Positions 11,069-46,997 are shown, numbered from the stretch's first letter. The stretch is DNA of 50,988 nt from a virus (IMGVR_UViG_3300037261_000025:1-50988), one strand, 5' to 3'. Notes: generated from the letters alone by a model not told the origin. Translations and numbers: made by a program.

Positions 11069-11227
11069 ATGGAATCAGTGAAAAAAGCGCACATCGCGCA
11101 CCTGATCCGGCTGCGTCAGGCGGACCCGGAATATGCCCGATACGCGCTCGCACAGACGCTGGCGATGGACATATGGCCGGACCTGGAAGAGTGCGTGCTG
11201 AGGGCTTGGAATGATCGAGAGAAGTAA
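11069..11227 (+). CDS. Hypothetical protein, 52 aa (not in the ORF track)
   Basis: MESVKKAHIAHLIRLRQADPEYARYAL...; its TAA lies in the R' box of attC-1. Confidence 0.65.
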   Translation: MESVKKAHIAHLIRLRQADPEYARYALAQTLAMDIWPDLEECVLRAWNDREK

Positions 11228-11293
11228 CGCCAAAAATCAGGGGGACTCCGGCGGCTTTATCGCCGGAGGCTCCCCTGGATTGCCGGGTTAGCC
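11222..11293 (-). other. attC-1 integron recombination site (72 bp)
   Basis: Minus strand: GGCTAAC-ccggc-AATCCAGG...CCTGATT-tttggc-GTTACTT; 5/6-nt spacers, extra C in L'', long imperfect hairpin. Confidence 0.85.
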
Positions 11294-11780
11294 CCGGCGC
11301 AACTACGGAGACGAACATGGAGCGATTGAAATACCCAATGAGCCATGAATGGCACGTTGCGATCAACCGGCACCACGACGGAAAGATGGGAACGCCCGAT
11401 TGGAAGCGCTGGATGTACGAAGCGAAAGCGATGGCCGACGAAGTGCCGCGCATGGCACTGGTGCTCGGCAGGGAGCGGCGCGGAGAACTCGCCAAGACGC
11501 ATAAGCAATGCTCGATGAATCCGGCGGTGCCGGTGCCAAGCAACCACCTGACGTGCTGCCTCGGCGTGAAGTGCGCGGAGTGCCCGGAACTGCTGGCGAT
11601 CGACAAGATTGAGCGGGTAACGCCCGAAGACATTGACACGGCGAAGGCATGGACGTGCGCGGCGCACATTGTTTCCAAGGGCGGCGACACGATGAACGAA
11701 GGCTACCTGCTCGACGTGAGCGACCGGATGTACTGGGACAACGTGTGCGAGAGCCTGAGCCAAGGTGATGAAGGGGCTAA
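11228..11780 (-). mobile_element. Gene cassette A (553 bp), gene inverted relative to attC
   Basis: Ends complementary over 9 nt (GTTAGCCCC 11287-11295 / GGGGCTAAC 11773-11781). Confidence 0.82.
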
Positions 11781-11787
11781 CGCTTGA
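11317..11787 (+). CDS. Cassette A cargo: Cys/His-rich hypothetical protein
   Basis: GGAG RBS; TCCLG.KC.ECP, WTC..H; stop codon lies inside attC-2. Confidence 0.8.
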   Translation: MERLKYPMSHEWHVAINRHHDGKMGTPDWKRWMYEAKAMADEVPRMALVLGRERRGELAKTHKQCSMNPAVPVPSNHLTCCLGVKCAECPELLAIDKIERVTPEDIDTAKAWTCAAHIVSKGGDTMNEGYLLDVSDRMYWDNVCESLSQGDEGANA

Positions 11788-11862
11788 ATTCAGCGACCGC
11801 GCTGAAAAATAAACTACAGCGTGCCACGCTTCGGCGCGGTTCGCTGGAATGACGGGTTAGCC
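11775..11862 (-). other. attC-2 integron recombination site (88 bp)
   Basis: Minus strand: GGCTAAC-ccgtc-ATTCCAGC-gaaccgcgc...gcgcggtc-GCTGAAT-tcaagc-GTTAGCC; extra C and extra A as in canonical attC. Confidence 0.9.
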
Positions 11863-12091
11863 GCTGCCCGCGAAACAGCGCGCAACACTTGGAGAACGTG
11901 AAATGAACTACTGTGAAGCCCTCGGCAAAATACGTGAAGCGCGAGCATTATTGCAAGACGAAGCTGCAACCCCGGCAAACACGCGGGAACTGGCTATGGC
12001 AATAACAAAGCTCGACGAAGCGATCCTCTGGCGGCAAAGCGACATGCAGAAAAAAGCGCCGGTCGTGGATGGCTGCTCCATAGGCGGCTAA
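11781..12091 (-). mobile_element. Gene cassette B (311 bp), gene inverted relative to attC
   Basis: Ends complementary over 9 nt (GTTAGCCGC 11856-11864 / GCGGCTAAC 12084-12092). Confidence 0.82.
11903..12091 (+). CDS. Cassette B cargo: Acb2/Tad1-like helical-hairpin protein (putative cyclic-nucleotide sponge)
   Basis: GGAG RBS; RELAMAITKLDEAILW resembles the RE..A.T.(L/V)EEA.(M/L)W pattern of Tad1-like proteins. Confidence 0.6.
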   Translation: MNYCEALGKIREARALLQDEAATPANTRELAMAITKLDEAILWRQSDMQKKAPVVDGCSIGG

Positions 12092-12142
12092 CGCAATGTC
12101 TAGCGCAACTGCGACATAACGTCGCCACGGCCAAGTTATAGA
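12089..12142 (-). other. attI-like cassette receptor site 1
   Basis: GTT crossover without an attC hairpin; gapless homology to 46503-46556. Confidence 0.65.
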
Positions 12143-12160
12143 TCAACTGGAGAATTTGAA

Positions 12161-12820
12161 ATGACCAAAGACATGATCGAACGCCTGCGCGATGGGTACG
12201 TATCGCGGGCCAAGCGATGGTCTGGTGATACCCACTCAGGGCTCGAAGGTGGCGAGGTTGACGTAGCAGCTACGGAATACCTGATGAAAGCAGCCGCCGA
12301 CGAACTCGAAGCCTCTGCCAAGCGCGAAGTGGCGCTGGCGGCTAGGGTTGCGGAGTTGGAACGTGAGTGCTATGCAACAACTAACACCATTGGACGCAAG
12401 GAAGTTGCCATCTTCACAAAGAAACACCACTCTACCTCGCAGCAGGAGCAAAACATGAGTAACGAAAAAGTGCTGATTGATCGGGCGCTGGTGGAGCAGG
12501 CAGTTGCGAGCATTTACGTAGCGTTTGGTGATTGCGCGCTGCTTAGAGGATTTAACGCCGAACTCGCTGCCAGTCCTGCTGCAACCAACGCCTTCAACCC
12601 AGAAGCCGAACGCACTGCTGCGTACAACGTCATTGCCGCTAGGGACAGACACATCGCAGAGCTTGAAGCCGAACTCGCGGCGGTCAGGAGTCAGGAGCCA
12701 ATTGGCTACGTCAGTGAAAACGATTGGAGTTGTGCATATCTGCATCATGACAATACACCAGGAAATCCCGTGTACGCAGCAGGCGGGGCACAGGAGAAGA
12801 AGTCACGCCCTCCGCTGTGA
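12161..12820 (+). CDS. Hypothetical protein (ead/ea22-like coiled-coil segments; possible internal start at 12455)
   Basis: GGAG RBS; ARVAELE and HIAELEAELAA..QEPIGYV; second CAGGAG-ATG at 12455. Confidence 0.65.
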   Translation: MTKDMIERLRDGYVSRAKRWSGDTHSGLEGGEVDVAATEYLMKAAADELEASAKREVALAARVAELERECYATTNTIGRKEVAIFTKKHHSTSQQEQNMSNEKVLIDRALVEQAVASIYVAFGDCALLRGFNAELAASPAATNAFNPEAERTAAYNVIAARDRHIAELEAELAAVRSQEPIGYVSENDWSCAYLHHDNTPGNPVYAAGGAQEKKSRPPL

Positions 12821-13015
12821 TTTCCTACGCTCAACTTCAAAATGGAGCGTCATTCTCCGCCGTTTCTCGTGATTCTCCACGGCAACTCTGATTCCGAGCG
12901 CCATGTTCCCGTCCCCTATTCGACGGGCATGGTAGGCGTGCCAAGCGCTAAGTCTCACTGAGAACGCATCCATTGCATCCATGTGTCGCTTCCTCCGTTC
13001 TTCTTGAATATCCAT
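12803..13015 (-). CDS. Hypothetical protein, 70 aa
   Basis: CAGGAGG RBS before MDIQEERRKRH. Confidence 0.65.
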   Translation of the reverse strand: MDIQEERRKRHMDAMDAFSVRLSAWHAYHARRIGDGNMALGIRVAVENHEKRRRMTLHFEVERRKSQRRA

Positions 13016-13123
13016 GGTGACCTCCTGTAATACAGGCTTGTAGCACGTATCGATGACTTCTGATGTACGGTAGCGCACACTGAATATGCCGCCGATTTGT
13101 GCGGTCATTTCAAAGGAATCATC

Positions 13124-13816
13124 ATGGCAGACATCGTTACCGGCACCGTCACGGGCCAACTTGACACTACTGCACTCTTGCAAGCTGACGCTGACATTCG
13201 TCGTGAAGCTGCAATCTACACCGCCGACATCCGGCGCGAAACCGCTAAAGAAGCTTCGGACCTGACCGACACTGTGAAAACCGCAGGATGGGCAAACAGC
13301 GACCGCACCGGCACCGAAGCGGATCGCATCGTGGCGCAGGATACGGCGTATTTCATTGCGAATCAGTCGCAGACTTTCGCTAACGCGACCGCTCTGGCTG
13401 CTCTCAAAGCTGGTACCGACATGTCGTTCGCAAACACCATGGCGGCTATCGCTGCGTCGGCTCAAGCGGGCCAAGCCGCTACCGCCCTTGAAGGTGCCAA
13501 GAATGCTGCCGCTACGGCCCTGGGTCAAGCGCTGCTTACGCAGGCAGTTATGGGCGATGGGGCGACTACCCGCGCACTCATCAACACGCTGAAGATGGAA
13601 GACCTGAACCGCTCCTTGACCGAGCGCCATGCGGAGATCGTCGAACAACGTGGCGATGCTCGTCGCTATCAGGACGGGTTCAACAACAGTCAGGTGAACG
13701 CGCTGTCTTCGCAGATCAATGCGCTTCATAGCCAGTTCCAGCAAGCAACCCAAAAGACCGTGAACTTCGGTACCATGGGAGCGGCTACCACTTCCAACGC
13801 TAACAACGTGGCGTAA
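13124..13816 (+). CDS. Ala/Thr-rich coiled-coil hypothetical protein
   Basis: AAGGA RBS; MADIVTGTVTG...; codon usage looks like a highly expressed gene. Confidence 0.8.
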   Translation: MADIVTGTVTGQLDTTALLQADADIRREAAIYTADIRRETAKEASDLTDTVKTAGWANSDRTGTEADRIVAQDTAYFIANQSQTFANATALAALKAGTDMSFANTMAAIAASAQAGQAATALEGAKNAAATALGQALLTQAVMGDGATTRALINTLKMEDLNRSLTERHAEIVEQRGDARRYQDGFNNSQVNALSSQINALHSQFQQATQKTVNFGTMGAATTSNANNVA

Positions 13817-13821
13817 TCATG

Positions 13822-13855
13822 TTCTCCGCCGCAGTCACTTGGGTGTGGTGGAGAA
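13822..13855 (+). other. Intergenic 12-bp hairpin
   Basis: ttctccgccgca / tgtggtggagaa with G-U pairs. Confidence 0.45.
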
Positions 13856-13878
13856 TCTCAACTTTAAGGAGGATTCGT

Positions 13879-14109
13879 ATGACACTTACCGAACAAGCTA
13901 CTCAAGATGCCCAGGCCGTCACCCAGGCACAAACAGCGCTCACAATAGCAACTAACAGGGCCACCACAAGCGCTGCCGCACTTGCCACAATGCAGCCATC
14001 CGTAGGCATGCTGGCGGACATTGAATCCGAACTGGCAAAACTAGACTCCGCAGCCAGCGCAATACTGCTTGAAACTATGGCGAAACTGAAAGCGCTGCTG
14101 AACGTGTGA
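13879..14109 (+). CDS. Hypothetical coiled-coil protein
   Basis: AAGGAGG RBS before MTLTEQATQDA. Confidence 0.75.
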   Translation: MTLTEQATQDAQAVTQAQTALTIATNRATTSAAALATMQPSVGMLADIESELAKLDSAASAILLETMAKLKALLNV

Positions 14110-14110
14110 T

Positions 14111-14581
14111 CTATTTCGGCCACGCCTGCTGATACATCATCGAATCTGCGGCGTGGGCGTCAGCTTCTGCTGAGATTCGTCCACCAGTTTGCGCCATTGT
14201 GCCGAGTACGGTTGTGCAGGCTGTGAGGCTCGCGGCAATGGCATCGCGGGTAGCTGTGCTTGCACCGGTACGGATGGTTTGCAGGGTGGTGTCGAGCAGC
14301 CTACCAGACTGAGCAGCAGCAGTGGCAGCAGCAGCCAGTACCTGGCGTTGTTTGTCAGCTTGTTTTTCGGCATCATCTTTCTCCTTTTGTTGTCTGATTT
14401 CAGTGGCTCTCTGTGCAGTAGCGTCAGCCAGTCTCTGGGCATCCCACTGTGCCTGCACCCGCGCTGCGCCGATGCTCTGCTGGTACGTCGTGTCCAGGTG
14501 CCGCAGGTAGAACGCACCGGCCAGCAGCGCGGCGATGATGATGGCGTCTAGAACGTATTTGTAGGGTCCGAGGAAGTTCAT
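14111..14581 (-). CDS. Rz: i-spanin (Rz-like)
   Basis: N-terminal TM followed by Ala-rich coiled coil; downstream of the lysin; embeds a lipoprotein gene. Confidence 0.8.
   Translation of the reverse strand: MNFLGPYKYVLDAIIIAALLAGAFYLRHLDTTYQQSIGAARVQAQWDAQRLADATAQRATEIRQQKEKDDAEKQADKQRQVLAAAATAAAQSGRLLDTTLQTIRTGASTATRDAIAASLTACTTVLGTMAQTGGRISAEADAHAADSMMYQQAWPK
14137..14376 (-). CDS. Rz1: o-spanin lipoprotein (Rz1-like), fully embedded in Rz
   Basis: AAGGAG RBS; signal peptide with LVGC lipobox; Pro-rich mature part. Confidence 0.82.
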   Translation of the reverse strand: MMPKNKLTNNARYWLLLPLLLLSLVGCSTPPCKPSVPVQAQLPAMPLPRASQPAQPYSAQWRKLVDESQQKLTPTPQIR

Positions 14582-14678
14582 GGGTTCGGTCCTTTCAGCC
14601 ATTGGCATATCTTGCGCCACACATACAAAAATCCGATGAGTAGAACGCACCATCCTATGCCAACCAAATGTCCCCAGG

Positions 14679-15062
14679 TCATGGCGTCACCTTGATGGCT
14701 TTGTCGGCACTGTTGAACAGGTTCGTCCGAACACCCCTGGACAAGATGATGCACCCTTCGGATGCGTTACCAGGATTTGAAATCGAATCGCCGTGCACGC
14801 GGAAAGTGGACCGACCGAACATTTCATTCGACGGATCAGGAATCAGGAGGATCGCGAACGGGCCGAGCTTCGGGCTATCCTCTGTCTCGGTGAAGGTATA
14901 AATGCCTCTCGGCAGCGGTCCGATGCACGGCTGATCCTGCATGTCTGGTGCGTTCTTGCCTTCTGGGTTCTTTCCGCAGTTTCCCCCGGCGTAGCCGTGC
15001 GCAACAAGGTTGCCATTCGGATCGGTCAGCGCCCCGCTACTTTGAGAATATGTCCAACTCAT
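14679..15062 (-). CDS. Tlde1/DUF2778-like L,D-transpeptidase-fold protein, putative endolysin
   Basis: GYAG, GPLPRG.Y, FRVHGD, ASEGCI; located between holin-like genes and spanins. Confidence 0.78.
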   Translation of the reverse strand: MSWTYSQSSGALTDPNGNLVAHGYAGGNCGKNPEGKNAPDMQDQPCIGPLPRGIYTFTETEDSPKLGPFAILLIPDPSNEMFGRSTFRVHGDSISNPGNASEGCIILSRGVRTNLFNSADKAIKVTP

Positions 15063-15298
15063 GATTTATCCTTGTCCAGTGTTTGCTGTTTCTGATTCAG
15101 CACTCGGGCAGCGACCTCGTGCATGATAACCACAGCACCGTAAGCAGCAACGAACCACTCGGTCAGAGTCCCGGTCTTTATCTCGTGACACAGGCCGTAT
15201 GTCAAGGCTGCTTTCCCGATGTTCGACCAAATCATCGTCTCCCGCAGCTTCCCTGTTTTGTGGTCCACCCATAAGTCGCGCCAGTGCCATTCACTCAT
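15059..15298 (-). CDS. Putative holin
   Basis: Two hydrophobic segments; D..TG.L..T..WSNIG; ATGA overlaps. Confidence 0.6.
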   Translation of the reverse strand: MSEWHWRDLWVDHKTGKLRETMIWSNIGKAALTYGLCHEIKTGTLTEWFVAAYGAVVIMHEVAARVLNQKQQTLDKDKS

Positions 15299-15711
15299 TT
15301 GTGTATCGCCTTCAGAAGTTCTTGGACAAACCCGCTCCACATCCACGCGGCGAACAGCCCCAGCAGCCCGAGCCCCGCCCATTTTGCCCCCGCGATTCGC
15401 ATCTCCTTCCAAAACTCAGCTTGTTCCTCAGCCTTGCGGATCGCCGCCTCATGGGCACGCCGGTGTCCATCCCAGTCACCATCGGGTACGGCTTGCTGCG
15501 CGATCTTCTCCAGAGTGGCATCAAGGTCTATGCGGTAACTCTCCATGTGGTCTGACACTTTCTGGTCGAGATGCACCAGCCCTGCATAAGTGCGCTTCAC
15601 CAGCGCCAGTACGGGATCATTCAATCGGCGTTGCGGGTGCCCCGGATGCGTGTCCTCAAACCCGTCGAATGGTGACGGCGCAGTCTCACCAAAGATGTCT
15701 TGTTCACTCAT
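15295..15711 (-). CDS. Membrane-anchored lysis-region protein (holin/antiholin-like)
   Basis: Single C-terminal TM (WAGLGLLGLFAAWMW). Confidence 0.6.
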   Translation of the reverse strand: MSEQDIFGETAPSPFDGFEDTHPGHPQRRLNDPVLALVKRTYAGLVHLDQKVSDHMESYRIDLDATLEKIAQQAVPDGDWDGHRRAHEAAIRKAEEQAEFWKEMRIAGAKWAGLGLLGLFAAWMWSGFVQELLKAIHK

Positions 15712-15753
15712 TTCAGAAACGTAGCTCCATAGAGTATTGCAGGAACGCCTAGA

Positions 15754-16011
15754 TTACGTGGGCTCAACTGGGCCACCGCCGCCGCCAACGTTGACGACCG
15801 CGCCAAGCGCCACCGGCTGAGCAGGCTGAGGCGGCAACGACTCGGGAAACAGGTGATGCCAGTTCGACAGGATGTCTGACTTCAGCACTTCGATTTCCGC
15901 TTCTAGCCAAGGCTTGGCAGACGCTACGGCAGCTTCGAGCTTCGCTTTTTCTAGAGCTAGATCGCCCTCGATTGCAGCGATGCGGGTTTGGATGCTTTGA
16001 ATGATATTCAT
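15754..16011 (-). CDS. Hypothetical protein
   Basis: AAGGA RBS; N-terminal coiled coil. Confidence 0.7.
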   Translation of the reverse strand: MNIIQSIQTRIAAIEGDLALEKAKLEAAVASAKPWLEAEIEVLKSDILSNWHHLFPESLPPQPAQPVALGAVVNVGGGGGPVEPT

Positions 16012-16020
16012 GGGTTTCCT

Positions 16021-16332
16021 TTAGTGTAAATAAGTCAACGAGAGAATTATTGCAGGTATCGCGGCTGTTACAACGGTCTTTCCGACACACATGAACAAAG
16101 ACTCGTTCTTCGGTGGCATGAAGTCACCCACCTTTTTCACGGCACACAGTCCACCGACGAGCACCGTAGCTATGAGGAAACAGAATTGCCACGGGAATGC
16201 AAATTGGTGGATACCTACGCCGATTAGGACGCCAAGACCACCGCCGTAGGCAAAGTGATTGACCCACGCGCCCCCAGGTAGTTGCGGAACGGAGTCAAGT
16301 AAAGCCGAAAGTTTGGCCAGTGATGTGTTCAT
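16021..16332 (-). CDS. Small membrane protein (3 hydrophobic segments)
   Basis: NHFAYG then hydrophobic helices; ATGA overlap. Confidence 0.7.
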   Translation of the reverse strand: MNTSLAKLSALLDSVPQLPGGAWVNHFAYGGGLGVLIGVGIHQFAFPWQFCFLIATVLVGGLCAVKKVGDFMPPKNESLFMCVGKTVVTAAIPAIILSLTYLH

Positions 16333-17657
16333 TGTGCGATTCCTAGAGTGTGAGAGCCACCCAACGCGGCGCGTAGGTAAGTCTTGGTGGAGTAATTCAC
16401 GGGGGTGATCGAGCCGAACTGTGCCCCATACTGCACTGGTGAGTTCGCGTACACCACAGTGGTTGTGACGGTGATCACTGGCGGGGCGTTGATAATAATG
16501 CTGCTGTATTGGTAGTTAATCGTCGTCAAAGACGCGATTTCCAGAGTACTGTTTTGATTTGCGTAGATATTGCTCGGAACACGGGTGGTCAGCAGCACCG
16601 CGCTGAACGAGTATGGCACTGTGGTGCCTGTCCCAAGCTGGCCGCTGACGTTCGCGCCCTGTACGGCCATCAGAGTATATCCACTTACACCAGGAACACC
16701 AGTCCCATGCGCGGTGCACACAGTATGATTATCCCCGCACGCGGCGGATAGATACGTGTAACCTAAGAACAGCCCGGTCATTCTGATTCTCGTGGGGGAC
16801 ATGTAGTATGCAGGCCAAACTGGTATGAACCCGCCCTGTGCCATCTGCCCGTTTGAATTAGACCCCCAGCTCCATAGAGACCCGTCCGCTTTGACGACCG
16901 CTGAGTGAGCACCGCCACATGCGGACGTCACAGGGGCTGCGGCATTGAGCCAGTCCGTAAGTACACCAACCTGAGTCAATGTGCTGCGGTTCGTCGTGTC
17001 CCCCTGCCCAAGTTGACCGCTTGAATTGAGCCCGCACATCCACAACGTGCCGTCTTGCTTAATCGCCAAACTGAACCCATTGCCCGTGCAGATTGCGGCC
17101 CAGGTAGTCAGTGCACCGATCTGCGTAGGGCTCAGGATATTTCCCGCTGGCGCGGTGCCGCACTGACCGTAGGTGTTGTCCCCCCAAGCCCATAAAGTGC
17201 CGTCCGTCTTGATAGCCAGCGCGTGGGTGTAGCGGCAGGATACTGACTGCCAAGTGGTCAGCGCTCCAATCTGAGTAGGGACGGTGAGTTGTGTGGTGTT
17301 GCCCTGGCCCAGTTGCCCGAATGAATTACCGCCCCATGACCACAGCGTACCAGTGCCTTTGATGGCATGGCTGCTGACTGTGCCCGCACCAAGTGCTTGC
17401 CACTCTTTAACAGCGCCTATCTGCACAGGGCTTGCAGGGGCCACGGCCACCAGAGATCCATTGCCGCACTGTCCGTTCGTGTTCGCACCCCAAGCCCAGA
17501 GCGTTCCGAGCGAAGTGCTCCCGCTGGGGGCCACGGGTGGAGGGCTAACCGCTGGCACGCTACCCGCTTGCAGTTGCAGCATTTGGTCAAGGCCCCATAC
17601 GCCTGCTGTACTTGGCGGGGAGGAACTGATATTGCTACCTAAACAACGGAGGGACAT
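16329..17657 (-). CDS. RCC1/BLIP-II repeat beta-propeller protein (tail or receptor-binding candidate)
   Basis: Repeated AIK.DGTLW.WG.N..GQLG. Confidence 0.85.
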   Translation of the reverse strand: MSLRCLGSNISSSPPSTAGVWGLDQMLQLQAGSVPAVSPPPVAPSGSTSLGTLWAWGANTNGQCGNGSLVAVAPASPVQIGAVKEWQALGAGTVSSHAIKGTGTLWSWGGNSFGQLGQGNTTQLTVPTQIGALTTWQSVSCRYTHALAIKTDGTLWAWGDNTYGQCGTAPAGNILSPTQIGALTTWAAICTGNGFSLAIKQDGTLWMCGLNSSGQLGQGDTTNRSTLTQVGVLTDWLNAAAPVTSACGGAHSAVVKADGSLWSWGSNSNGQMAQGGFIPVWPAYYMSPTRIRMTGLFLGYTYLSAACGDNHTVCTAHGTGVPGVSGYTLMAVQGANVSGQLGTGTTVPYSFSAVLLTTRVPSNIYANQNSTLEIASLTTINYQYSSIIINAPPVITVTTTVVYANSPVQYGAQFGSITPVNYSTKTYLRAALGGSHTLGIAQ

Positions 17658-17659
17658 AG

Positions 17660-18838: not shown

Positions 18839-18840
18839 GA

Positions 18841-19215: not shown

Positions 19216-19224
19216 GGTGAGTCC

Positions 19225-35258: not shown

Positions 35259-36248
35259 TTAAACCAGCGAGTCCCACTTCACGATCCGCGCATTTGCGGC
35301 CAACGTGTGAACGATGCCGAAGCCGCCCATGTAGTACCACGCGACGCCCTTGGACCGGCCGAAGTCAGTGGGGATCTTGCCGCGCATTTCTTCCGGCACC
35401 GCAATCGCTTCCGCCACCGTATCATTGCCGAAGAAGAAAATCCAGTCGGACTTGCCTTGCGACCAACCGACCATATCACCACCAGCAGCGGTCGAAATAC
35501 CTGTGGTACCGATGCCCTTGGCGATGTTGGTTTGTTCCACATAACGGCAATTTTCGTAACGACCAATTTCACCATTCATGATGAGCTTGAAGCCGGTGTC
35601 CGAATATTGGTGGATGGTTTCGAGGTTGTTCTTGAAGGCGCGCAGCGTGGTGGGCCAAGCGAGCGCATAGTAGTCATCACCCAAGTACGCGGGAATGTTG
35701 CGCTCCTTCATCAAGTCAACCATCGACTTCGCGTGGGCGTTGTTGTAGGCGACCGTATTGGTGCCGGTCACAGTGCCGTTGGTGTACAGCGTGAGCGCGG
35801 CAACATCGGTACCGCCGACCGGAATCGCACGCAGCAGCGTTTGATTGAACTGATTCCAGGACATGCGGTCGAAAGACTTCACGGCGTCGTTCTTCAGAAC
35901 CTTTTGCACCAATTCCATCACCGGGAACTTGGACAGATTGTCCAGTTTGCCCGAGTACGGCACCGAGTTGCCAGCTTCCGTGATCGTCAGAGTACCTTGA
36001 ACGATCGTGAAGTTGGATTCGGGCATCGTGTTGGTTTCCGTCAACACACCACCTGCGGTGGCGACGTCAGAGAACACGTCCCAGGTGAAGATATCCCCCT
36101 TTTTCTTGCCTTGCTGACTCGCATCGCGAACGTCACAGAACTGGCGGAATTTCACCAGCGGCTGTACGGACATCCGCAACACGTTCGAAAGTTGGCGCGA
36201 GTACATGAACCCGCCCAACGAATTAACTGCCCAAACTTGACCTGCCAT
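35259..36248 (-). CDS. Major capsid protein (HK97 fold)
   Basis: 329 aa after portal and scaffold; G..L.E..T.P, E.GNSV, GEIGR.E..R.VE, DFGR..G.AWY. Confidence 0.85.
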   Translation of the reverse strand: MAGQVWAVNSLGGFMYSRQLSNVLRMSVQPLVKFRQFCDVRDASQQGKKKGDIFTWDVFSDVATAGGVLTETNTMPESNFTIVQGTLTITEAGNSVPYSGKLDNLSKFPVMELVQKVLKNDAVKSFDRMSWNQFNQTLLRAIPVGGTDVAALTLYTNGTVTGTNTVAYNNAHAKSMVDLMKERNIPAYLGDDYYALAWPTTLRAFKNNLETIHQYSDTGFKLIMNGEIGRYENCRYVEQTNIAKGIGTTGISTAAGGDMVGWSQGKSDWIFFFGNDTVAEAIAVPEEMRGKIPTDFGRSKGVAWYYMGGFGIVHTLAANARIVKWDSLV

Positions 36249-37247: not shown

Positions 37248-37248
37248 G

Positions 37249-40293: not shown

Positions 40294-40553
40294 CAAGAGA
40301 ATGACTCGTCCCACTTCTTGCCGAGTTCACCCTTGTCTACTCCGCCGTTGGAGTTTGAAGCACCAGCTTCATCAAGTACCTTCTTCATCCTATCATTCCT
40401 GTCCTTGATGACTTCAATGGTGCTCTTGGATTTGGCAGGAGCAGACGCAGCAGGCTTAGGTTTCGGTTCCTCGGTGAACTTCTCCTTTGGGCTGGTGATC
40501 TTTTCCCAGAGAGATTTCTCTTTCTTGGGAGGTTCAAGGTCTGGAAGTGGCAT
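40293..40553 (-). CDS. Hypothetical protein
   Basis: GGAG RBS before MPLPDLEPP. Confidence 0.65.
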   Translation of the reverse strand: MPLPDLEPPKKEKSLWEKITSPKEKFTEEPKPKPAASAPAKSKSTIEVIKDRNDRMKKVLDEAGASNSNGGVDKGELGKKWDESFS

Positions 40554-40555
40554 GA

Positions 40556-40858
40556 TTATCTCCGTTGAATTTGACCGAAATGCTGATTCCAAGGCTGACC
40601 GACTTCGCCCGCATTGTGCCCGGCTTGCTGGAGGTGGGCGGGCTGGGCCATGCCGACAGGGGAGGCCATCTGCGCAGGTTGTGCCGCATTGACTCCCTGA
40701 TGAACAGCCTCCCCGACTGCGGCGCGAATCGGCGCGGCCATTCCCACAGGCGCGGCCATTGGTTGTTGTGCTTGAATATGTGCGGGACCGGCCATCCCAA
40801 CAGCCGGTGCTGCGGGTTGCGGACCAAATGCCCGGACTGCGTTTTGAATACTTGCCAT
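40556..40858 (-). CDS. Low-complexity Ala/Gln/Pro-rich protein
   Basis: AGGAG RBS; repeated VGMA.P. Confidence 0.65.
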   Translation of the reverse strand: MASIQNAVRAFGPQPAAPAVGMAGPAHIQAQQPMAAPVGMAAPIRAAVGEAVHQGVNAAQPAQMASPVGMAQPAHLQQAGHNAGEVGQPWNQHFGQIQRR

Positions 40859-40866
40859 GTTGACTC

Positions 40867-41220
40867 CTAATTCAGTTGATACTCAGCGCCGAACTCACCA
40901 TTCCAACGACCACGAGGCAAACCCATGCGCTCCAATAATTCGCCACCAGCCAGCATGGCCATATGTGCGAGTGCCTTTGGCGTGAACCCCTTGCCGCCAT
41001 CGATTGTGTAACCGTACCGGGCGTCACCAGCCATGTGCTTTACCACCAGCGTCATGCCCGGAGCCCATCCGACCATCCACGGGTGGTCAGGATAGGCCTT
41101 GCACAGCAACGTGGCCACCTCTTTGGCCTTGTGCTCCATCTCGATTGATTCTGCGTCTACAGACGTAACCTCGACGGTCTGCACGTCAACATCGATTTGC
41201 CGGTCGTGAATATTGCTCAT
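40867..41220 (-). CDS. Hypothetical protein
   Basis: L...YP.HPW.V ... AGGELLER..LPRG. Confidence 0.75.
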   Translation of the reverse strand: MSNIHDRQIDVDVQTVEVTSVDAESIEMEHKAKEVATLLCKAYPDHPWMVGWAPGMTLVVKHMAGDARYGYTIDGGKGFTPKALAHMAMLAGGELLERMGLPRGRWNGEFGAEYQLN

Positions 41221-41423
41221 GACACCAATGGGGATGGGTTCGGAATGAGGACGGGTTTCGGCTCAGCCACAGGGGCCTGGGAGGCGGTATCGGTAGCGAT
41301 GTTGTACGCAGCATTGGCTTGGACCGCAGCAATTCCGTCGAGTCTGCCTTGTTCGTATACCGCTTGGACAGCCGCCTCATGGGAATGGCTGAAGTTCTCA
41401 GCGTAGGTTTGCAGTGGGCTCAT
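41217..41423 (-). CDS. Hypothetical protein
   Basis: GGAG RBS; ATGA overlap. Confidence 0.65.
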   Translation of the reverse strand: MSPLQTYAENFSHSHEAAVQAVYEQGRLDGIAAVQANAAYNIATDTASQAPVAEPKPVLIPNPSPLVS

Positions 41424-41498
41424 GTGTGCTCCGTTGGTTTGGCGGAATTATGCCGTAGTCTTTTGCTGTGATAATGATTATTCTGTTCGCTGCTTCTA

Positions 41499-41708
41499 TC
41501 ATGCCAAGTTCGGATTGTAAATACCTGTGTTGTTTTTGTCTGTGGAATCGTACTTGCGCCCGTTGCTGAACTCATAGACTCCGTGGTCTGGCGCATTGAA
41601 CTCGCTTCCCCATGCGCGCTGAGCCAGTTCGTTCCATGATATCGCTCTAGAGACAACCGCGTTCCCGAGGTTGTTGATGTTAACTGCTGCGGGTGGATTC
41701 GTTGCCAT
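41499..41708 (-). CDS. Hypothetical protein
   Basis: GGAG RBS before MATNPP. Confidence 0.65.
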   Translation of the reverse strand: MATNPPAAVNINNLGNAVVSRAISWNELAQRAWGSEFNAPDHGVYEFSNGRKYDSTDKNNTGIYNPNLA

Positions 41709-41901
41709 TTTGGTTCTCCATGAATCTCTCGAATACCTCAATGCTGGCGCTCAGCGCGTCCACATCATCCCTGACATTTTGCACGTCATGCTCCATGTTC
41801 GACAGCGCCTGACTACGCATTTTCAGCCTTTCGCGCATTTGTTTCAACTGGCTTTCGATCAGTTGGCGCGGCGTGGGTTCACGGTTCAATAGACTGGTCA
41901 T
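41680..41901 (-). CDS. Hypothetical coiled-coil protein
   Basis: ORF track; operon packing. Confidence 0.6.
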   Translation of the reverse strand: MTSLLNREPTPRQLIESQLKQMRERLKMRSQALSNMEHDVQNVRDDVDALSASIEVFERFMENQNGNESTRSS

Positions 41902-42088
41902 GCCCCAAATCCTTCAAAATTCCGACCAGGCGGCTGATGATCTTCACAGAGTTTCCGGTGCACTCAATGCGGGAGCGCTCGCCTTCTATCTTCGTGTACG
42001 TGAATCCCGCCACAATGGTGTCGCCGCGCATAAGGCGTGCAACAACTTCTGTGTGCTCCAAACCATCAGGTGTATTCTGGCTCAGCAT
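41879..42088 (-). CDS. Hypothetical protein
   Basis: Fills the gap after terL; start uncertain. Confidence 0.4.
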   Translation of the reverse strand: MLSQNTPDGLEHTEVVARLMRGDTIVAGFTYTKIEGERSRIECTGNSVKIISRLVGILKDLGHDQSIEP

Positions 42089-43709
42089 ATGATGGCTCGT
42101 TGCGTTTTGGGGCCATCGGCTCCATGTCATAAATTCGGGCCGCAGCGTCGATTGCGTCCTTCAGACCGTGCGGAAAGTAGTGGAATTGTAGCTTCAATTG
42201 CGCAGTTAGGTCATACATATTACCGTGCTCATCCTTCCGTCGGATTTGCCGAGCGATTCGGTAGTCGTATCCAGTTCCGGCCATCTGGCGCTGGTTTCTG
42301 GTGAGATTTTTCTCATCCGTCTCATAGGGCAGGAAGAACTTGTGCGACTTGCAGTCTGGCACCAGCCGCTGCACGCGGTCCGTCTTTGAGCCCTCGCCGT
42401 CACGTGGCCAAGCCAACTCCTTTACTTCAAATCGCGGTCGATCTGGCAACCGCATTTGCTCCTTAAAGTAGTCTAGATCAGCCTGTGCACCGAAAGACTC
42501 GTAGCCCATCTTGACCTGCTGCACGCCTGTGGCGTTTTGCCACTTTATGTACATCCGGGAAAAGTTCTCCCACCGCTCCTGCAGGTCCATTTTGTGGTTG
42601 AAGCCATCCAAAAGATACTTGTTGTTCCCGGCGTCGATGCCGATGACAATGATTGCTGTGTTTGCGCTGTCCTTTTTCTTTGACCGAGCCGGATCGCACA
42701 GGACGTACACAGCCAGCGTCTCGGGCCTGACCTCGTAGACCTGCAGGTCAGTGATGTCAAAGATGCGTTGCTCTCCTGACAGCGGATTTTGAAGGTACTG
42801 ACAAGCAATGTCGCTGTCGGTGTTCTTCAATAGCCTTTTCTCCCACTCACCCTGCGGGAAATACACCGGTCTACCCTCTCTTGTGCCGTCATGCGTGGCC
42901 GGGTAGATGCGCGGCTTCAGGGCTCCACGGGAAATAACCCAGTCATAGGTGTCAGCGTAGGAGTATCGAGTCCCGATCATCCATTCTTCGCCGCCAACCG
43001 TCCCAAGCGATTGACTCAGCGAGTATGCGTTTGTGGTCTTTTCGCTTTGCTCTGGAGTGGAGACTGATTTGTCTGTGACAACATCGTCGTATATCCTGAG
43101 TCGATAGTGTTTACCTATGGGCTGGCCGTCAATCAGGCCAGATGCCTCGACCGTGGCCTCCTTGGAGTTGCCCTTGCGCTTGACTACGATCCCGTCAGTC
43201 GACCACCGCTGTGCCTGCTTGCTTGGGTCATCCCAGAGTATTTCCGGGAAAGCCGCCTTTAGACGACCATTTGTCTCTAGCTCGACCTTGATCTGCCGCA
43301 GGAAGTCCACCGCAAGTGTGCCGACATTGCTAAAAATGCCGATTGTGATCTCTGGGTCTTGGAGGATTCGCTGGATTGACCCACCGAATGTAATCACGGT
43401 ACTCTTGTAATGCTCTCTGGCCCATAGATCAATGTGCCCTGCTGGGTCTGCTTCTACCTCCCGACAGCGAGCATAGATCCACGGATGTAGCATGTCCTTG
43501 CGTGCGCACATCTGGACGAGCAGAAAGTACCTATCCCACAAGCACAGCGCACGAACGCCTGTGATGTCCTTGCCGCCGTCTGTGATACGGTCCCACGCGG
43601 CGAACAACTCAGACCCGAACGGGAGGTCCTGAGTGGCGAGTCTCATCGACCGTCGAGTTTCTCGGCTAAATGGATCACCAGAATCCACAGCGCCATACCC
43701 AATACCCAA
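42066..43709 (-). CDS. terL: Terminase large subunit
   Basis: AREHYKST (Walker A variant), G.HY...YDD, IGTRY...D.Y, DPA..K..SANTA, KTDRV, DAIDA; start uncertain. Confidence 0.88.
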   Translation of the reverse strand: MGIGYGAVDSGDPFSRETRRSMRLATQDLPFGSELFAAWDRITDGGKDITGVRALCLWDRYFLLVQMCARKDMLHPWIYARCREVEADPAGHIDLWAREHYKSTVITFGGSIQRILQDPEITIGIFSNVGTLAVDFLRQIKVELETNGRLKAAFPEILWDDPSKQAQRWSTDGIVVKRKGNSKEATVEASGLIDGQPIGKHYRLRIYDDVVTDKSVSTPEQSEKTTNAYSLSQSLGTVGGEEWMIGTRYSYADTYDWVISRGALKPRIYPATHDGTREGRPVYFPQGEWEKRLLKNTDSDIACQYLQNPLSGEQRIFDITDLQVYEVRPETLAVYVLCDPARSKKKDSANTAIIVIGIDAGNNKYLLDGFNHKMDLQERWENFSRMYIKWQNATGVQQVKMGYESFGAQADLDYFKEQMRLPDRPRFEVKELAWPRDGEGSKTDRVQRLVPDCKSHKFFLPYETDEKNLTRNQRQMAGTGYDYRIARQIRRKDEHGNMYDLTAQLKLQFHYFPHGLKDAIDAAARIYDMEPMAPKRNEPSYAEPEYT

Positions 43710-43718
43710 AAAGCATGA

Positions 43719-43922
43719 TCAGTCCAGGCTTGAGCCGTTGTAAGCCGTGCGCTTCTGGTATGCCTGATCACACATGATGTGATCCTCCAGCTTCTGCGCC
43801 ATTTCTCGATTGGGCGTCTTGTGGATCATACCGTCCAGCTCGTAGGAGCCGGTCAGGTCGCTGATGCTGCGCCAGTCTTTCGGGCAGCACTGGTGGTTTG
43901 AGTAGGTTTTCAGCTTTCTCAT
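43719..43922 (-). CDS. Hypothetical protein
   Basis: GGAGG RBS; ATGA overlap. Confidence 0.6.
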   Translation of the reverse strand: MRKLKTYSNHQCCPKDWRSISDLTGSYELDGMIHKTPNREMAQKLEDHIMCDQAYQKRTAYNGSSLD

Positions 43923-44404
43923 TTGCCCTCCAATTTTTTGTTAGCGTAGCTCCTAAGATCATCCTGAGACATGAGCGGGATGGACACCTCGTTATTGACC
44001 TGCACCGCCACGGCTGGAGCCTTTCCGACGAGATTTTCCTTCGCCGCGTTGATTGTAGCCGACCTGTGGCGGTAGTCGGTTTGGTCTTCGCAGTCTGCGG
44101 CCATTGCTTGTGCGACATTTTCTAGCGCCATCTTAGCAAGGTACTCCAGGCGCTTAGATATGATCGTGACCGTCTCCTCGACGGCGGTCACGATGCGGTC
44201 ATCTTGGGCCTGGAGGGCGCGTCGATATTCGATACCGGCGGTCACGATTGGTGCGACATCTTGCTCGACGCCTTTGCAGAGCTTATTTACGGCACCCTTG
44301 CTTACACCGTGCTTATCGGATATCTGACTCTGGCTCATCTGCCCCAATCGCCAGTCTGTGACGATAGCACTTGATATGGCTTTGTCTAGCGGTTTTGCTG
44401 CCAT
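43919..44404 (-). CDS. Terminase small subunit candidate
   Basis: N-terminal HTH (SQSQISDKHGVSKGAVNK), helical middle, AVQVNN tail; upstream of terL. Confidence 0.65.
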   Translation of the reverse strand: MAAKPLDKAISSAIVTDWRLGQMSQSQISDKHGVSKGAVNKLCKGVEQDVAPIVTAGIEYRRALQAQDDRIVTAVEETVTIISKRLEYLAKMALENVAQAMAADCEDQTDYRHRSATINAAKENLVGKAPAVAVQVNNEVSIPLMSQDDLRSYANKKLEGK

Positions 44405-44489
44405 GTTTGGTCCTTTGATGTGCCCGCGCAGGCTACACGATGGGTTTGGCTTGTCGCCTGGGTTGAGTCATGCGTGCGGGGCGAGTGTA

Positions 44490-44699
44490 TTATGACGCTG
44501 TTTCGGATATTTCGAACAAACTCAACTGCCCGTCGGCATGCTTGATCACCCGACGGCGCGACACCACTCTCGCCGTATTTTCTTTGCCCGTGCTGAGCCC
44601 CATCTTAGCCGCGCAGACCGGCCCGAATGAGCACCCGGATATTGTCATCACCGTTGCGGTTTGTAGGGGTCGGCTACAGCGGGAACAGCGCAGAGTCAT
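44490..44699 (-). CDS. Small zinc-finger protein
   Basis: CSRCSRPL...GPVCA. Confidence 0.65.
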   Translation of the reverse strand: MTLRCSRCSRPLQTATVMTISGCSFGPVCAAKMGLSTGKENTARVVSRRRVIKHADGQLSLFEISETAS

Positions 44700-44701
44700 G
44701 G

Positions 44702-45001
44702 CTAAGCGAACATCCCTAGTTCTGAGCGTGTTTCCTGAGCCCACTGCCGCCCGATCTTCATGGCTTCGGCGCGTGGGAACAGAATATATCGATCGTAGCT
44801 GGCGTGGCATCCAAGGATTCCGGGACGCGTGCAGCACAGAGGAAATGTCATTCTGTCGTCGGCCTTGATCGCTTTACCATCTGGCGGCAAGTGCGCGGCT
44901 TGGCTGTATCCATGGATTCCGCACTGCTTGCACGGTAGCGCTGCTACCAGTCGTCGGTACGACTCAGAGCGCATTGGGTTTGACTTTGGGCGGGCGGTCA
45001 T
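44702..45001 (-). CDS. HNH-like zinc-binding protein (DUF968/Ref-like)
   Basis: LPCKQCG...AAH...K.DD...PLC...CH..YD. Confidence 0.72.
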   Translation of the reverse strand: MTARPKSNPMRSESYRRLVAALPCKQCGIHGYSQAAHLPPDGKAIKADDRMTFPLCCTRPGILGCHASYDRYILFPRAEAMKIGRQWAQETRSELGMFA

Positions 45002-45053
45002 GATTTCCCCTTCGTTGCAAGAACAATTTCCAGGCATCCGGATTTGGGTGTGT

Positions 45054-45293
45054 TTAAGGCGTTTTAGGCATACGCACAATGAGCGCAGACTTGATTCTAA
45101 AAAGCTCCCACATTGCCGGGTGCATACGCCGGTCTCCAGCCTCCCATTGCTGCCACGCACGGCACGTAGAGTGCACCAGGGCAGCAGCAGCGGTTTGAGT
45201 AAGTCCCGCGATGGCTTCGCGTGCCGCTTTGATTTCTTCTGGCGTAGGATTTGAAGAAGGCCCTTTCGGGCCTCTGTTTGGGTGTGCTGTCAT
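45054..45293 (-). CDS. XRE-family HTH regulator
   Basis: EIKAARE..GLTQTAAAALV....RAWQQWEAG.R.M.PA.WELF. Confidence 0.85.
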   Translation of the reverse strand: MTAHPNRGPKGPSSNPTPEEIKAAREAIAGLTQTAAAALVHSTCRAWQQWEAGDRRMHPAMWELFRIKSALIVRMPKTP

Positions 45294-45297
45294 GGTT

Positions 45298-45612
45298 TTA
45301 CAGAGTGGCTACTAAGCCGCCCCATGCATATCCTTTTTCGCACATTTCCATCAATTTCTGAAGGCTTATAGACTTGTCAGCAATCATTTCATGAGTGCCT
45401 TCAAAGTCGATTCCTTGTCCACCAGCAGCGTCAAATGCAGAAGTCAGGCATTCCTGAGCGGCGCGAAGATAGGCGGCTTTTGCTGCGGCTTCAAACAGGC
45501 TGTAGACAAATTTTTCTTCGCGATTTCCAAGCAGGGTTTTTGCTGGCTTTGCAGGCATTAGAGCGGCGATGCTGGCGGCAGCTTGAATCATGGCATCTTG
45601 AGTGGTAGACAT
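45298..45612 (-). CDS. Hypothetical protein (TIR-element cargo)
   Basis: AAGGA RBS. Confidence 0.72.
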   Translation of the reverse strand: MSTTQDAMIQAAASIAALMPAKPAKTLLGNREEKFVYSLFEAAAKAAYLRAAQECLTSAFDAAGGQGIDFEGTHEMIADKSISLQKLMEMCEKGYAWGGLVATL

Positions 45613-45674
45613 TTTGATTTCCTTAGCCCCTGTACCCGAGGCGCGGTGGTCAGCGATTTTGCTGGCCTGAATGA

Positions 45675-45708
45675 ATTATATATCGAAATACGAGCATTGC
45701 GCGTATTT
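45675..45708 (-). promoter_or_regulatory. -10 box and palindromic operator
   Basis: TATAAT on the minus strand at 45675-45680; aaatacgagcattgcgcgtattt 45686-45708 is a one-mismatch palindrome. Confidence 0.6.
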
Positions 45709-45738
45709 GTGAAAAATAAAAACACACCAAAATCCGGA

Positions 45739-46197
45739 TCACCCAATTTCCCCAGTTTCTGGGTCTGTTACCCACTGCGCGGATTCCCGAAGCTCCACGC
45801 CGTTTTGCGCTGCCCACGCCATCACGTATTCAACCAGGCTTGAAAGACGCGCCTTGCTCATCCTGGCCGTACTCTCGCGAATGTTTACCGCCTCATTCTC
45901 AAGGCCAGGCACAAACTCTGCGCCCTCTCGCGTAGCCACGGAATGGGCCGAAACGAACAAAACTTTCCATTCCGTGGCGCTGCGCTTCTTACCCATCCAT
46001 TCGGCCTGTGCGGCCACGTCGGCAAAAAGCGCGTGCAGCAGCCGGTTTTGCGCGCTGGATCGCGTCTCCTTGCGGATTTCGAGTGTCAGGCGGTTCCGGG
46101 CCATGAGCATGGATTTCGCCCACTCCCACGCGAGCTTGATGACTTGCCAAGCCTGCACCGGCTCCCACAAACGGGCAGTGAACTTTTCTTCGGTCAC
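45739..46197 (-). CDS. ninB: NinB-family recombination protein
   Basis: RS..QN.LLHA...DVA.Q..W.G......WK..F...PGL.G..V....ST..MS. Confidence 0.88.
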   Translation of the reverse strand: MTEEKFTARLWEPVQAWQVIKLAWEWAKSMLMARNRLTLEIRKETRSSAQNRLLHALFADVAAQAEWMGKKRSATEWKVLFVSAHSVATREGAEFVPGLENEAVNIRESTARMSKARLSSLVEYVMAWAAQNGVELRESAQWVTDPETGEIG

Positions 46198-46484
46198 GGT
46201 ATACCCCTCAGCACTTTCAGCGACCGCAGCGCCGCATCAACTGAATCGACCATCGCCACGGGCAATCCCTTTGCTTCTTCGGCCTGCTTCGCGTTCATGC
46301 CTTTTCGGCCATAGCCTGTTTTCGCATTTTTTACCTCAAAATACATACACACCTCCGATTCGTTTGTTGCCCATACTTGCAGGTCATAGGGCTGGTGAAC
46401 CACCTTTACCCGTGCGCCAGCCTTTCGGAGTGCTTCAACGATGGTTTTTTGGTTTCCGTCAACCCTGCGGGCGTATCGTGTCAT
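46194..46484 (-). CDS. PD-(D/E)xK nuclease (VRR-NUC or resolvase-like)
   Basis: RVD.NQ..IV.ALR..GA.V...DL....EVK. Confidence 0.75.
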   Translation of the reverse strand: MTRYARRVDGNQKTIVEALRKAGARVKVVHQPYDLQVWATNESEVCMYFEVKNAKTGYGRKGMNAKQAEEAKGLPVAMVDSVDAALRSLKVLRGIP

Positions 46485-46499
46485 TTTTATTTTTCCATT

Positions 46500-46556
46500 C
46501 GCTCTATAACGTCTCCACAGACAAGTTATAGAGCGGTTGCGGTTTATATTGCGTTA
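46500..46556 (+). other. attI-like cassette receptor site 2
   Basis: cgctctataac-N14-gttatagagcg then GTTGCG...attgcG|TT; homologous to 12089-12142. Confidence 0.65.
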
Positions 46557-46976
46557 TGTGCGTTCCCACAGAATCGAGTTCCGTCCAAGCTGCACGGCCT
46601 TGGCGCATTGCACCTCGTCAAACTCGCCTATATGGGCTTCTCCCTTCCCGAGATTCATCAATACCGCGAGGTGTGAATACACCTCGTGTCTGCGTAGTCG
46701 GCCTTCGCGCCAGTAAGGGTCAATGGCCGCGTGTGCCGCTTGCTTCGCCGTTCTCAGTTGCGCGTTTGCCAGCCTACCGAGTGGTCTGGTGCCGTCGCCG
46801 TAGCCGTTGCCTGCTTTGTGGCATCCAACGTAAGCACCACATGGCACACAGCGCCAAAACCTCAAGGCTTCAAGGTCTGGGCGGTGCGGGTAAATGTCTG
46901 CGCCCGTTGCCAGTACCGCAGGCGTTCCGCAGTAGTGGCACATAACAGGTCGCTCAATCTGATTCACTTCGTTCAC
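46554..46976 (-). CDS. Cassette C cargo: zinc-finger protein (DUF3268-like)
   Basis: C.YCG...IYPHR.DL...C..C.AYVGCH...PLG.LAN..LR..K..AH...DP.W...HIG.FD...C. Confidence 0.8.
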   Translation of the reverse strand: MNEVNQIERPVMCHYCGTPAVLATGADIYPHRPDLEALRFWRCVPCGAYVGCHKAGNGYGDGTRPLGRLANAQLRTAKQAAHAAIDPYWREGRLRRHEVYSHLAVLMNLGKGEAHIGEFDEVQCAKAVQLGRNSILWERT

Positions 46977-46991
46977 AGCTTATCTCCAGCG
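46554..46991 (+). mobile_element. Gene cassette C (438 bp), gene inverted relative to attC
   Basis: GTTATGTGC 46553-46561 complementary to GCACATAAC 46938-46946. Confidence 0.75.
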
Positions 46992-46997
46992 TTAGAT
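46940..46997 (+). other. attC-3 (58 bp, partly degenerate)
   Basis: ACATAAC-aggtc-GCTCAATC-tgattcacttcgttcaca-GCTTATC-tccagc-GTTAGAT; two L-box mismatches. Confidence 0.7.

Follow-up and report, generated by a model that had tools for sequence, protein, structure and literature searches.

Do phages carry gene cassettes of the integron type without an integron integrase, and if so, how are such cassettes expressed and exchanged? The question is raised by two loci in an uncultured virus record of IMG/VR (IMGVR_UViG_3300037261_000025), whose complete sequence of 50988 nt is called the window below. Integrons are bacterial gene-capture devices, in which the bottom strand of an attC site folds into a bulged hairpin that is recognised by the integron integrase IntI. 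The attC ends consist of the inverse core RYYYAAC and the core GTTRRRY, which are mutually complementary, and the site is defined as a single-stranded hairpin with an unequal unpaired central spacer and extrahelical bases on one arm. The window contains three integron attC sites, two of which are intact and one of which looks decayed. With a probability of about 0.6, we read them as parts of genuine attC cassettes whose expression depends on read-through and whose exchange depends on IntI supplied in trans.

The sites were identified with a covariance model, R1, built from a seed alignment (A3) of 15 elements, two from the window and 13 from five other phage contigs; compensatory changes occur in 6 of the 12 pairs of its RNAalifold consensus. 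Applied to the whole window (both strands, filters off), R1 gives three matches and no other below E 0.7. Since sites 1 and 2 belong to the seed, their matches are a matter of construction; site 3 does not belong to it. In the list, the arrow marks the predicted crossover.

11221-11294, + strand (gene-sense, which is the attC bottom strand): attC site 1; R1 49.2 bits; single-stranded DNA fold z -3.4; boxes R' TAA↓C at 11225-11228 and R'' GTTAGCC at 11287-11293, both on +
11774-11863, + strand (bottom strand): attC site 2; R1 47.2 bits on + and 11.1 bits on -; fold z -5.6
46939-46998, - strand (gene-sense, bottom strand): attC site 3, degenerate; R1 24.9 bits, E 0.0011; two non-standard pairs

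Read on the gene-sense strand, the elements consist of TAAC, a 6-nt spacer, a stem whose 3' arm carries two bulged bases, a 5-nt spacer and GTTA. The 7-nt ends of site 2 (R' GGCTAA↓C and R'' GTTAGCC) pair throughout, and in sites 1 and 3 the end pairing spans the TAAC/GTTA part. None of 200 shuffles folds as well as single-stranded site 1 or site 2. The hairpin expected of an attC, with spacers of 6 and 5 nt and bulged bases, is formed by sites 1 and 2 and not by site 3, which does not fold. The hairpin sites that an original prediction had noticed in the window are confirmed, and the canonical attC geometry it described holds for sites 1 and 2. The predicted TAA↓C crossovers are located at 11227/11228, 11779/11780 and 12091/12092 on the + strand, and at 46992/46991 and 46554/46553 on the - strand.

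The same features could in principle belong to intergenic RNA hairpins (processing sites, attenuators or terminators) that merely resemble attC, since the sites lie on the transcribed strand between genes, and attC sites themselves are thought to contain weak terminators according to the text of Qi et al. 2023 (PMC9892861), citing earlier work. This explanation can be confronted with plasmid R100 (NC_002134; 50 kb, both strands, filters off), where the model built from phage elements alone produces a single significant match (13474-13535 +, 36 bits, E 3.5e-6), followed by a second-best of 12.8 bits. The match is the aadA1 attC, between aadA1 (13539-14327 -) and qacEdelta1. R1 aligns end to end with it, which supports the hairpin features given above as those that define attC; the geometry of this integron, In2, is like that of the window sites, with a crossover in the TAA↓C / G↓TT core. 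In addition, R1 arrays stand beside integron integrases, no sense-strand terminator-like site (hairpin plus T-run) is present at any of the three window sites, and Rfam, which holds no attC family, yields nothing meaningful at them at E<=5. Given the R100 control and the corresponding controls with viral and bacterial intI, the RNA-hairpin explanation is close to refuted, and we regard it as highly improbable. A blastn search of plasmids with site 2 returned only fragments with E>=0.7, three of them beside aacA34, which have no evidential value.

The viral control is based on 50 array-bearing viral records, mostly longer ones, searched with TIGR02249. Seven match at E<=0.001, and three exceed the 265-bit cut-off (G036 with 441, G027 with 359 and G052 with 269 bits). 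In these three and in the two records whose partial matches are strongest (G019 and G038), that is, in five of five, the R1 sites lie ~350-930 nt 5' of intI on the intI strand. A tyrosine recombinase 1.8 kb from the array of G004 was considered as IntI and rejected as a generic integrase. For the bacterial control, the IntI of G036 (441.5 bits) was used to retrieve 80 bacterial integron loci, 66 of which were scanned with R1 after 14 short ones had been left out. The scan located 77 sites in 18 of the 66 loci; in 13 of these loci the sites are 5' of intI on the intI strand, and in five they are 3' on the opposite strand. Among the 13 are a locus labelled Limnobacter olei (L160), which has 15 R1 sites, and another labelled as a Rubrivivax metagenome-assembled genome (MAG; L150), whose IntI is 83% identical. 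R1 is therefore described best as a type-specific, not universal, attC detector, with its best bacterial scores in Burkholderiales. Two loci labelled as Thermoanaerobaculia MAGs (L188 and L207) have long arrays of very uniform ~98-nt R1 sites beyond 11000 on the - strand, 3' of intI and on the opposite strand, an integrase layout that is reversed relative to R100.

Conservation of the structure was assessed in the 150 best viral matches, an alignment that was fitted to the model and so somewhat favours structure. Standard pairs fill 97.7% of the cells, compared with 81.3% in shuffles and 27-41% in slid controls, and both sides of a pair have changed in 276 cells, compared with 81.5 in shuffles; none of 500 shuffles reaches 276. 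Compensatory changes affect 9 of 13 pairs, and the AAC/GTT pairs are invariant or nearly so among 145 distinct copies. The phage hairpins belong to the attC family, as the recovery of the aadA1 attC by a phage-built model and the position of the sites beside integron integrases demonstrate in agreement with the original prediction. Besides this membership, which rests on structure, the analysis shows how the genes are oriented, that the window lacks a recombinase, that the sites cluster in arrays and that homology breaks off at the crossover.

Three cassette-like units would be delimited in the window by the TAA↓C crossovers:

11228-11779, + strand: unit B, 552 nt; attC 1, a leader and a Cys-rich open reading frame (ORF) of 156 aa at 11317-11787
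11780-12091, + strand: unit A, 312 nt; attC 2, a leader and a 62-aa ORF at 11903-12091
46554-46991, - strand: unit 3, 438 nt; attC 3 and a DUF3268 zinc-finger ORF at 46554-46976

Of the lengths predicted originally for these units, 438 nt is reproduced here, and 553 and 311 nt are replaced by 552 and 312. The final 8 nt of the 156-aa ORF extend into the next unit, and the stop codon TAA of the 62-aa ORF is that of the following TAA↓C. The DUF3268 ORF matches PF11672 (E 1.1e-29) from residue 10 onwards, and its true start is probably the ATG at 46944, within R''. The 156-aa protein has no match in Pfam, PHROG or NCBIfam. The 62-aa protein has a weak, sub-threshold match to the PF24729 Acb2/Tad1 hairpin family (22.4 bits, with a cut-off of 27), and its ORF has no relatives among the collected loci.

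Homologues of the 156-aa gene were found in seven other viral loci (55-90% amino acid identity), where the DNA similarity to the window is limited to the gene and its immediate edges, ~11251-11807. An R1 site stands just upstream of the homologue in 5 of the 7 loci, a sixth being cut by the contig start, and a second R1 site follows within ~60 nt in 5 of the 7. The elements around these genes consist of TAACGC, ~6 nt, a hairpin of variable sequence, ~5 nt and GTTAGCC. The leader that follows R'' (11294-11316 in the window) is composed of GGCGCAAC, a few nt, GGAGA and ATG, and precedes different genes; the motif recurs upstream of position 3001 in three of the loci (L014, L016 and L017) and in a contig of run X13 that covers 11276-11319.

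The array type looks widespread. A strict IUPAC pattern matches 118 stretches in viral_contigs. With L036 and L052 left out as duplicates of L013 and L016, R1 (E<=0.001) gives at least 300 matches in 78 viral loci and 132 in the other 38, a total of at least 432 in 116 loci; some of the contigs are near-duplicates. All sites fall in one cluster of 1-2.6 kb in each of five whole records, and several loci have 11-13 sites with a spacing of ~460 nt. One locus (L028) has two arrays on opposite strands, with five sites at 219-2162 (-) and nine at 8641-12927 (+).

Because the R100 match lies on the intI1 strand (14476-15489 +), antisense to aadA1, the R1-sense strand is the attC bottom strand. The window genes lie on this same strand, both the DUF3268 gene and the conserved 156-aa family being R1-sense, and they are therefore inverted relative to canonical cassettes. 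In2 has intI1, attI1 and a gene antisense to the bottom strand, whereas the window has no intI and its genes are on the bottom strand. This strand control upholds the original prediction that the genes are inverted; their predicted co-orientation with the phage operon is supported as well.

The orientation was then counted for adjacent-site intervals of 120-1500 nt (identical ones once) among 448 sites with coordinates. ORFs were scored by the longest ORF weighted by G+C content at the third minus the second codon position (GC3 minus GC2), because without the weighting the longest ORF leaves too many ambiguities in DNA rich in G+C:

Viral arrays: 100 sense, 24 antisense, 101 undecided
Bacterial intI loci: 6 sense, 18 antisense, 28 undecided

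The difference corresponds to an odds ratio of 12.5 in Fisher's exact test (p 2.4e-7). This p value overstates independence, as the ORF caller is crude and related arrays are counted separately; 45% of the intervals are undecided. The count agrees with a homology check in the G052 array, where Pfam DNA-methyltransferase domains are present in 4 of 10 sense ORFs and none of the 10 antisense ORFs matches anything. The part of G052 collected as a locus (L094, G052:24303-35865) has a genuine integron integrase, and its array and flanking genes read towards intI, on the intI strand; the four methyltransferase genes of this array are orphans.

Orientation also bears on the possibility that the units are inert relics: a single illegitimate recombination event would have taken them from a host chromosomal integron, and they would have been passed on ever after, the hairpins having no role today. 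The decay of site 3 and the absence of an integrase from the window are compatible with such an origin, and illegitimate recombination is a route that the text of Qi et al. 2023 (PMC9892861) proposes for the entry of such clusters into phages. Random pick-up, however, predicts either orientation or the bacterial one, and not the sense excess of the viral arrays. Three further findings speak against this origin: arrays recur at a syntenic place beside recET, attC sites enclose one and the same 156-aa gene in phages that have no DNA similarity in their flanks, and sites 1 and 2 are intact. We consider inert relics an improbable explanation.

The window encodes no tyrosine, integron, serine or Y1 recombinase: six-frame searches of it with PF00589, TIGR02249, PF00239 and PF01797 give no match at E<=1, as expected from the original prediction, which had recognised no tyrosine recombinase. 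An integrase gene beside the array, the mark of a complete integron, is thus missing (no TIGR02249 or PF00589 match at that threshold). Locus 1, with two sites 553 nt apart and no intI in the record, can be classed as an attC cluster without an integrase (CALIN), and locus 2, with one site and no intI in the record, as a single attC site lacking an integrase (SALIN). Promoter-like (sigma-70-like) sites were found at neither locus; terminator-like sites number four at locus 1, where 2.3 are expected, and none at locus 2.

In the window, the attC bottom strand is the phage coding strand, and each site is placed just upstream of a small gene. Being inverted relative to ordinary cassettes, the ORFs are unable to use the integron promoter Pc. 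Since the units also lack a sigma-70-like promoter, the mechanism that we propose most likely relies on read-through from transcripts of the phage early and recombination modules. Exchange of units between phages would most likely be carried out by IntI in trans, from a host chromosomal integron or from a related phage that bears intI; it would join two attC sites, or one attC and a secondary site. The acting enzyme, the mode of expression and the ongoing nature of the exchange are what we infer here. The borrowed-IntI capture system of the original prediction, taken as a whole, is partly supported. In T4-type phages, small early genes bracketed by repeated stem-loops, the promoter early stem-loop (PeSL) cassettes, are shuffled without a dedicated recombinase; PeSLs are promoter-plus-terminator units, not integron sites, and unlike them the window loci have no promoter-like site.

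If units move as cassettes, homology between phages should break at the crossover. An all-versus-all comparison of array-bearing viral loci (blocks of 150-1500 nt, >=75% identity, near-syntenic pairs dropped) yields 508 block ends, of which 68 are no more than 5 nt and 110 no more than 10 nt away from a predicted TAA↓C, compared with 2-4% for shifted controls. Blocks that start at the crossover (46 of 248, 38 of them with the whole hairpin inside) cannot be explained by coding constraint. At the 156-aa gene, the right edge of the shared block falls at 11782-11790 in L014-L017, close to the predicted 11779/11780, and at 11807 in L013 and 11765 in L018. The left edge is at 11251-11302 in the relatives, so that the hairpin is not shared. 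Further cases come from Logan contigs of sequencing runs X2, X3, X4 and X13, of which X3 belongs to a study other than the possible source. A contig of X3 matches the window over 11103-11230, beyond which it passes into another attC-like sequence, and in X4 and X13 the 156-aa gene is joined to other hairpins. The alternative cargo and the breaks at the predicted crossover that the original prediction had called for in relatives are thus observed at the 156-aa loci, in X3 and among the block ends. Uncovered stretches (e.g. 12019-13263 in X2) and a 156-nt 'skip' in X13 (side 26, likeness <95) are uninformative. Three loci related through the primase (L010-L012, 35-63% amino acid identity) have no R1 site in ~11 kb each, and are too diverged for an empty-site comparison at base level.

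The same break-points keep alive the main rival explanation, because their pattern is mixed. It supposes that attC-derived hairpins have become conserved 'linker' repeats, whose flanks (TAACGC... and ...GGGTTAGCC plus the leader) let RecET-type annealing swap genes without an integrase. Co-oriented R1 sites are found directly downstream of recE and/or recT homologues in eight loci (L076, L079, L044, L068, L078, L032, L106 and L120), and locus 2 of the window is arranged likewise, with a co-oriented site downstream of RecE/RecT. Breaks occur at both conserved flanks, with 60 blocks starting at the R''/leader and 46 at the crossover; in run X13 the attC 3' flank and leader (11276-11319) are joined to a different gene; and most array-bearing phages have no IntI. 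On the other hand, the bulged hairpin is kept by compensatory change across hundreds of copies, which patches of homology alone would not need. The conserved flanks measure only ~10-20 nt, and the concentration of break-points within 5 nt of the crossover is sharper than homologous exchange would be expected to give. We judge RecET-type exchange to be unlikely, though less so than inert relics.

Exchange by IntI in trans, as proposed above, has several findings to contend with, and these weigh against it. Strict IntI exchange predicts breaks only at TAA↓C, yet the 60 of 248 blocks mentioned start just after the hairpin, and hairpins upstream of 156-aa genes with 82-90% identity differ strongly between phages. 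Breaks on the 3' side (58 of 248 blocks end at the crossover, the usual place of the stop codon) could be explained by coding constraint alone, as stop codons and TAA↓C coincide. A second contig of X3 rejoins the window at 12133, within a 27-nt repeat described below, and not at 12091/12092. The DUF3268 homologue of L001 (91% identical) shares DNA with the window only over 46553-46947, from crossover to R''; there the domain follows, in frame, an unrelated N-terminal extension (~57 aa, Ala-Leu repeats) in a fused ORF at 2839-3402, an R1 site ends at the start of this ORF, and the fusion junction has no hairpin. IntI above the cut-off is found in only 3 of the 50 array-bearing viral records and in none of the 13 that are >=90% complete. 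The coarse orientation count belongs here too, as does site 3: R1 recognises it at E 0.0011, in keeping with the third attC of the original prediction, whereas its L''/L' stem is unconfirmed and its single-stranded fold is no better than shuffles (z -0.3; 66 of 200 as good).

The original prediction also placed an attI-like site at each locus. The underlying 27-nt repeat is real (12116-12142 and 46506-46532; two matches, with 0 expected) and forms part of a longer junction module:

12089-12165, + strand: copy 1, from TAAC through the 27-nt repeat to the ATG of the gene at 12161-12820
46480-46556, - strand: copy 2, from TAAC through the 27-nt repeat (46506-46532) to the ATG of the gene at 46194-46484

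In gene-sense direction the two copies give a gapless alignment of 87 nt in which 56 columns are identical. Copy 1 has no R1 match and no significant fold (z -0.6), and copy 2 forms a strong hairpin with 10-bp arms and a 14-nt loop (z -4.5). A 14-nt centre between inverted arms of 5-10 bp (12121-12134 and 46511-46524) is flipped between the copies, being identical at 5 of 14 positions as aligned and at 11 of 14 when flipped, with colinear flanks; a switch of template at a quasi-palindrome or conversion of a short patch may have caused this. The idea that the repeat is opposite in orientation to the two arrays was rejected, since the flanks are colinear and only the centre is flipped. The leader motif CGCAAC is present in both copies.

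A third copy of the 75-nt module was found in a metagenome contig, L242, which has no R1 site and reads CGAAAC at the position of the leader motif. In each of the three copies the homology sets in precisely at TAAC and ends at ATGAC, and the neighbouring genes differ on either side; in the window, both arrays have the module adjoining their final TAA↓C, each time in the same orientation. An attI would show such a sharp left edge at TAA↓C. Unlike an attI, the module also has an equally sharp right edge at ATG, is rare and contains the X3 break. The module has no copy in viral_contigs, and neither it nor the 27-nt repeat occurs elsewhere in 2.2 Mb of related loci, including the integron loci collected at that point; for this reason the repeat was rejected as a general attI. 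The module is private to this lineage (the two window copies and L242), and the repeat of the original prediction stands, as a possible attI. That the module serves as a docking site is doubtful.

A broader scenario can be outlined, which we hold tentatively and with clearly less confidence than exchange by IntI in trans. Uncultured phages, probably with Burkholderiales-type hosts, may keep an integron branch of their own, with arrays in the early/recombination module and with backward cassettes (the ORF on the attC bottom strand) expressed by read-through and not from Pc. Their cargo would include counter-defence genes such as orphan DNA methyltransferases, trading would depend on the IntI of a minority of phages or of the host, and the 75-nt module would be the docking site at both loci.

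Integron elements in phages are not new. The text of Qi et al. 2023 (PMC9892861) describes 3 complete integrons, 1 In0 and 17 CALINs in a survey of 10,705 phage genomes, so that such clusters were rare there, and reports recombination by IntI1 at 5 of the 6 phage attC sites tested. Their CALINs are likewise attC clusters without integrase, including some in virulent phages, and their cargo includes DNA methyltransferases, as do the sense ORFs of G052. They come from cultured or deposited phages, whereas here one attC type is shared by 116 viral loci that are uncultured and whose arrays have as many as ~13 sites. The TJE1 and PH101 cassettes of that survey are oriented as in bacteria, in contrast to the present ORFs, which are mostly on the attC bottom strand; no statement on the strand of ORFs relative to attC was found in its text, and its figures or supplements may bear on the point.

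In the available text of Loot et al. (10.1101/2022.09.11.507474), IntI is described to insert cassettes at non-att sites of genomes, giving rise to SALINs, and such single cassettes can be excised and are expressed when a resident promoter is close by. Locus 2 agrees with this, as does the presence of cassettes in a genome without attI. Those SALINs are in bacterial genomes, and neither a phage case nor an inverted-ORF bias was found in that text. No description of attC arrays with inverted ORFs in phages was found in full-text literature, a coverage that excludes subscription journals, supplements and figures. While phage CALINs were published in 2023 (Qi et al., PMC9892861), inverted-ORF arrays, which look widespread in uncultured phages, thus appear little described.

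What deserves attention is that uncultured phage contigs contain one attC type hundreds of times, at a recurrent place beside recET and with genes that point the other way from those of bacterial cassettes. Should the orientation be adaptive, it would imply a cassette pool made for phages rather than for bacteria and account mechanistically for the mosaicism that is well known among small early genes. The attC model would then be a simple sequence handle to harvest candidate counter-defence genes from viromes, and stress-induced host integron integrases could reshuffle the genomes of infecting phages.

The window is a complete IMG/VR record, rated 100% complete by CheckV and classed as 'linear'. 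The phage is a tailed phage, with genes reading rightward up to ~14.1 kb and leftward in the remainder:

2387-4585, rightward: helicase-methylase fusion
5601-8975, + strand: intein-bearing helicase of 1124 aa, with a Hint/intein domain (PF05203, E 1.3e-16)
9376-10551, rightward: primase
35259-36248, leftward: major head protein
42066-43709, leftward: large terminase
45739-46197, leftward: NinB/Orf
47400-49124, leftward: RecE
49121-49876, leftward: RecT

Megablast of 10500-13000 against deposited phages gave no match, and relatives of the neighbouring 219-aa gene were sought and none found. Long in-frame tandem repeats with periods of 21, 18 and 15 nt are present at 1-234, 508-1011, 1372-1690 and 50729-50983. 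Since both ends of the 'linear' record lie inside one 21-nt tandem repeat, a small gap may exist despite the CheckV rating, and the presence of this repeat family at both ends suggests that the assembly probably broke within one repeat-rich gene of a circular or permuted genome. The only Rfam match at the gathering threshold is a full-length Betaproteobacteria-1 RNA (10568-10691 +, 87 bits, E 8.6e-15), located between the primase gene and an ORF at 10622-11065, ~530 nt upstream of attC site 1, which hints at a betaproteobacterial host.

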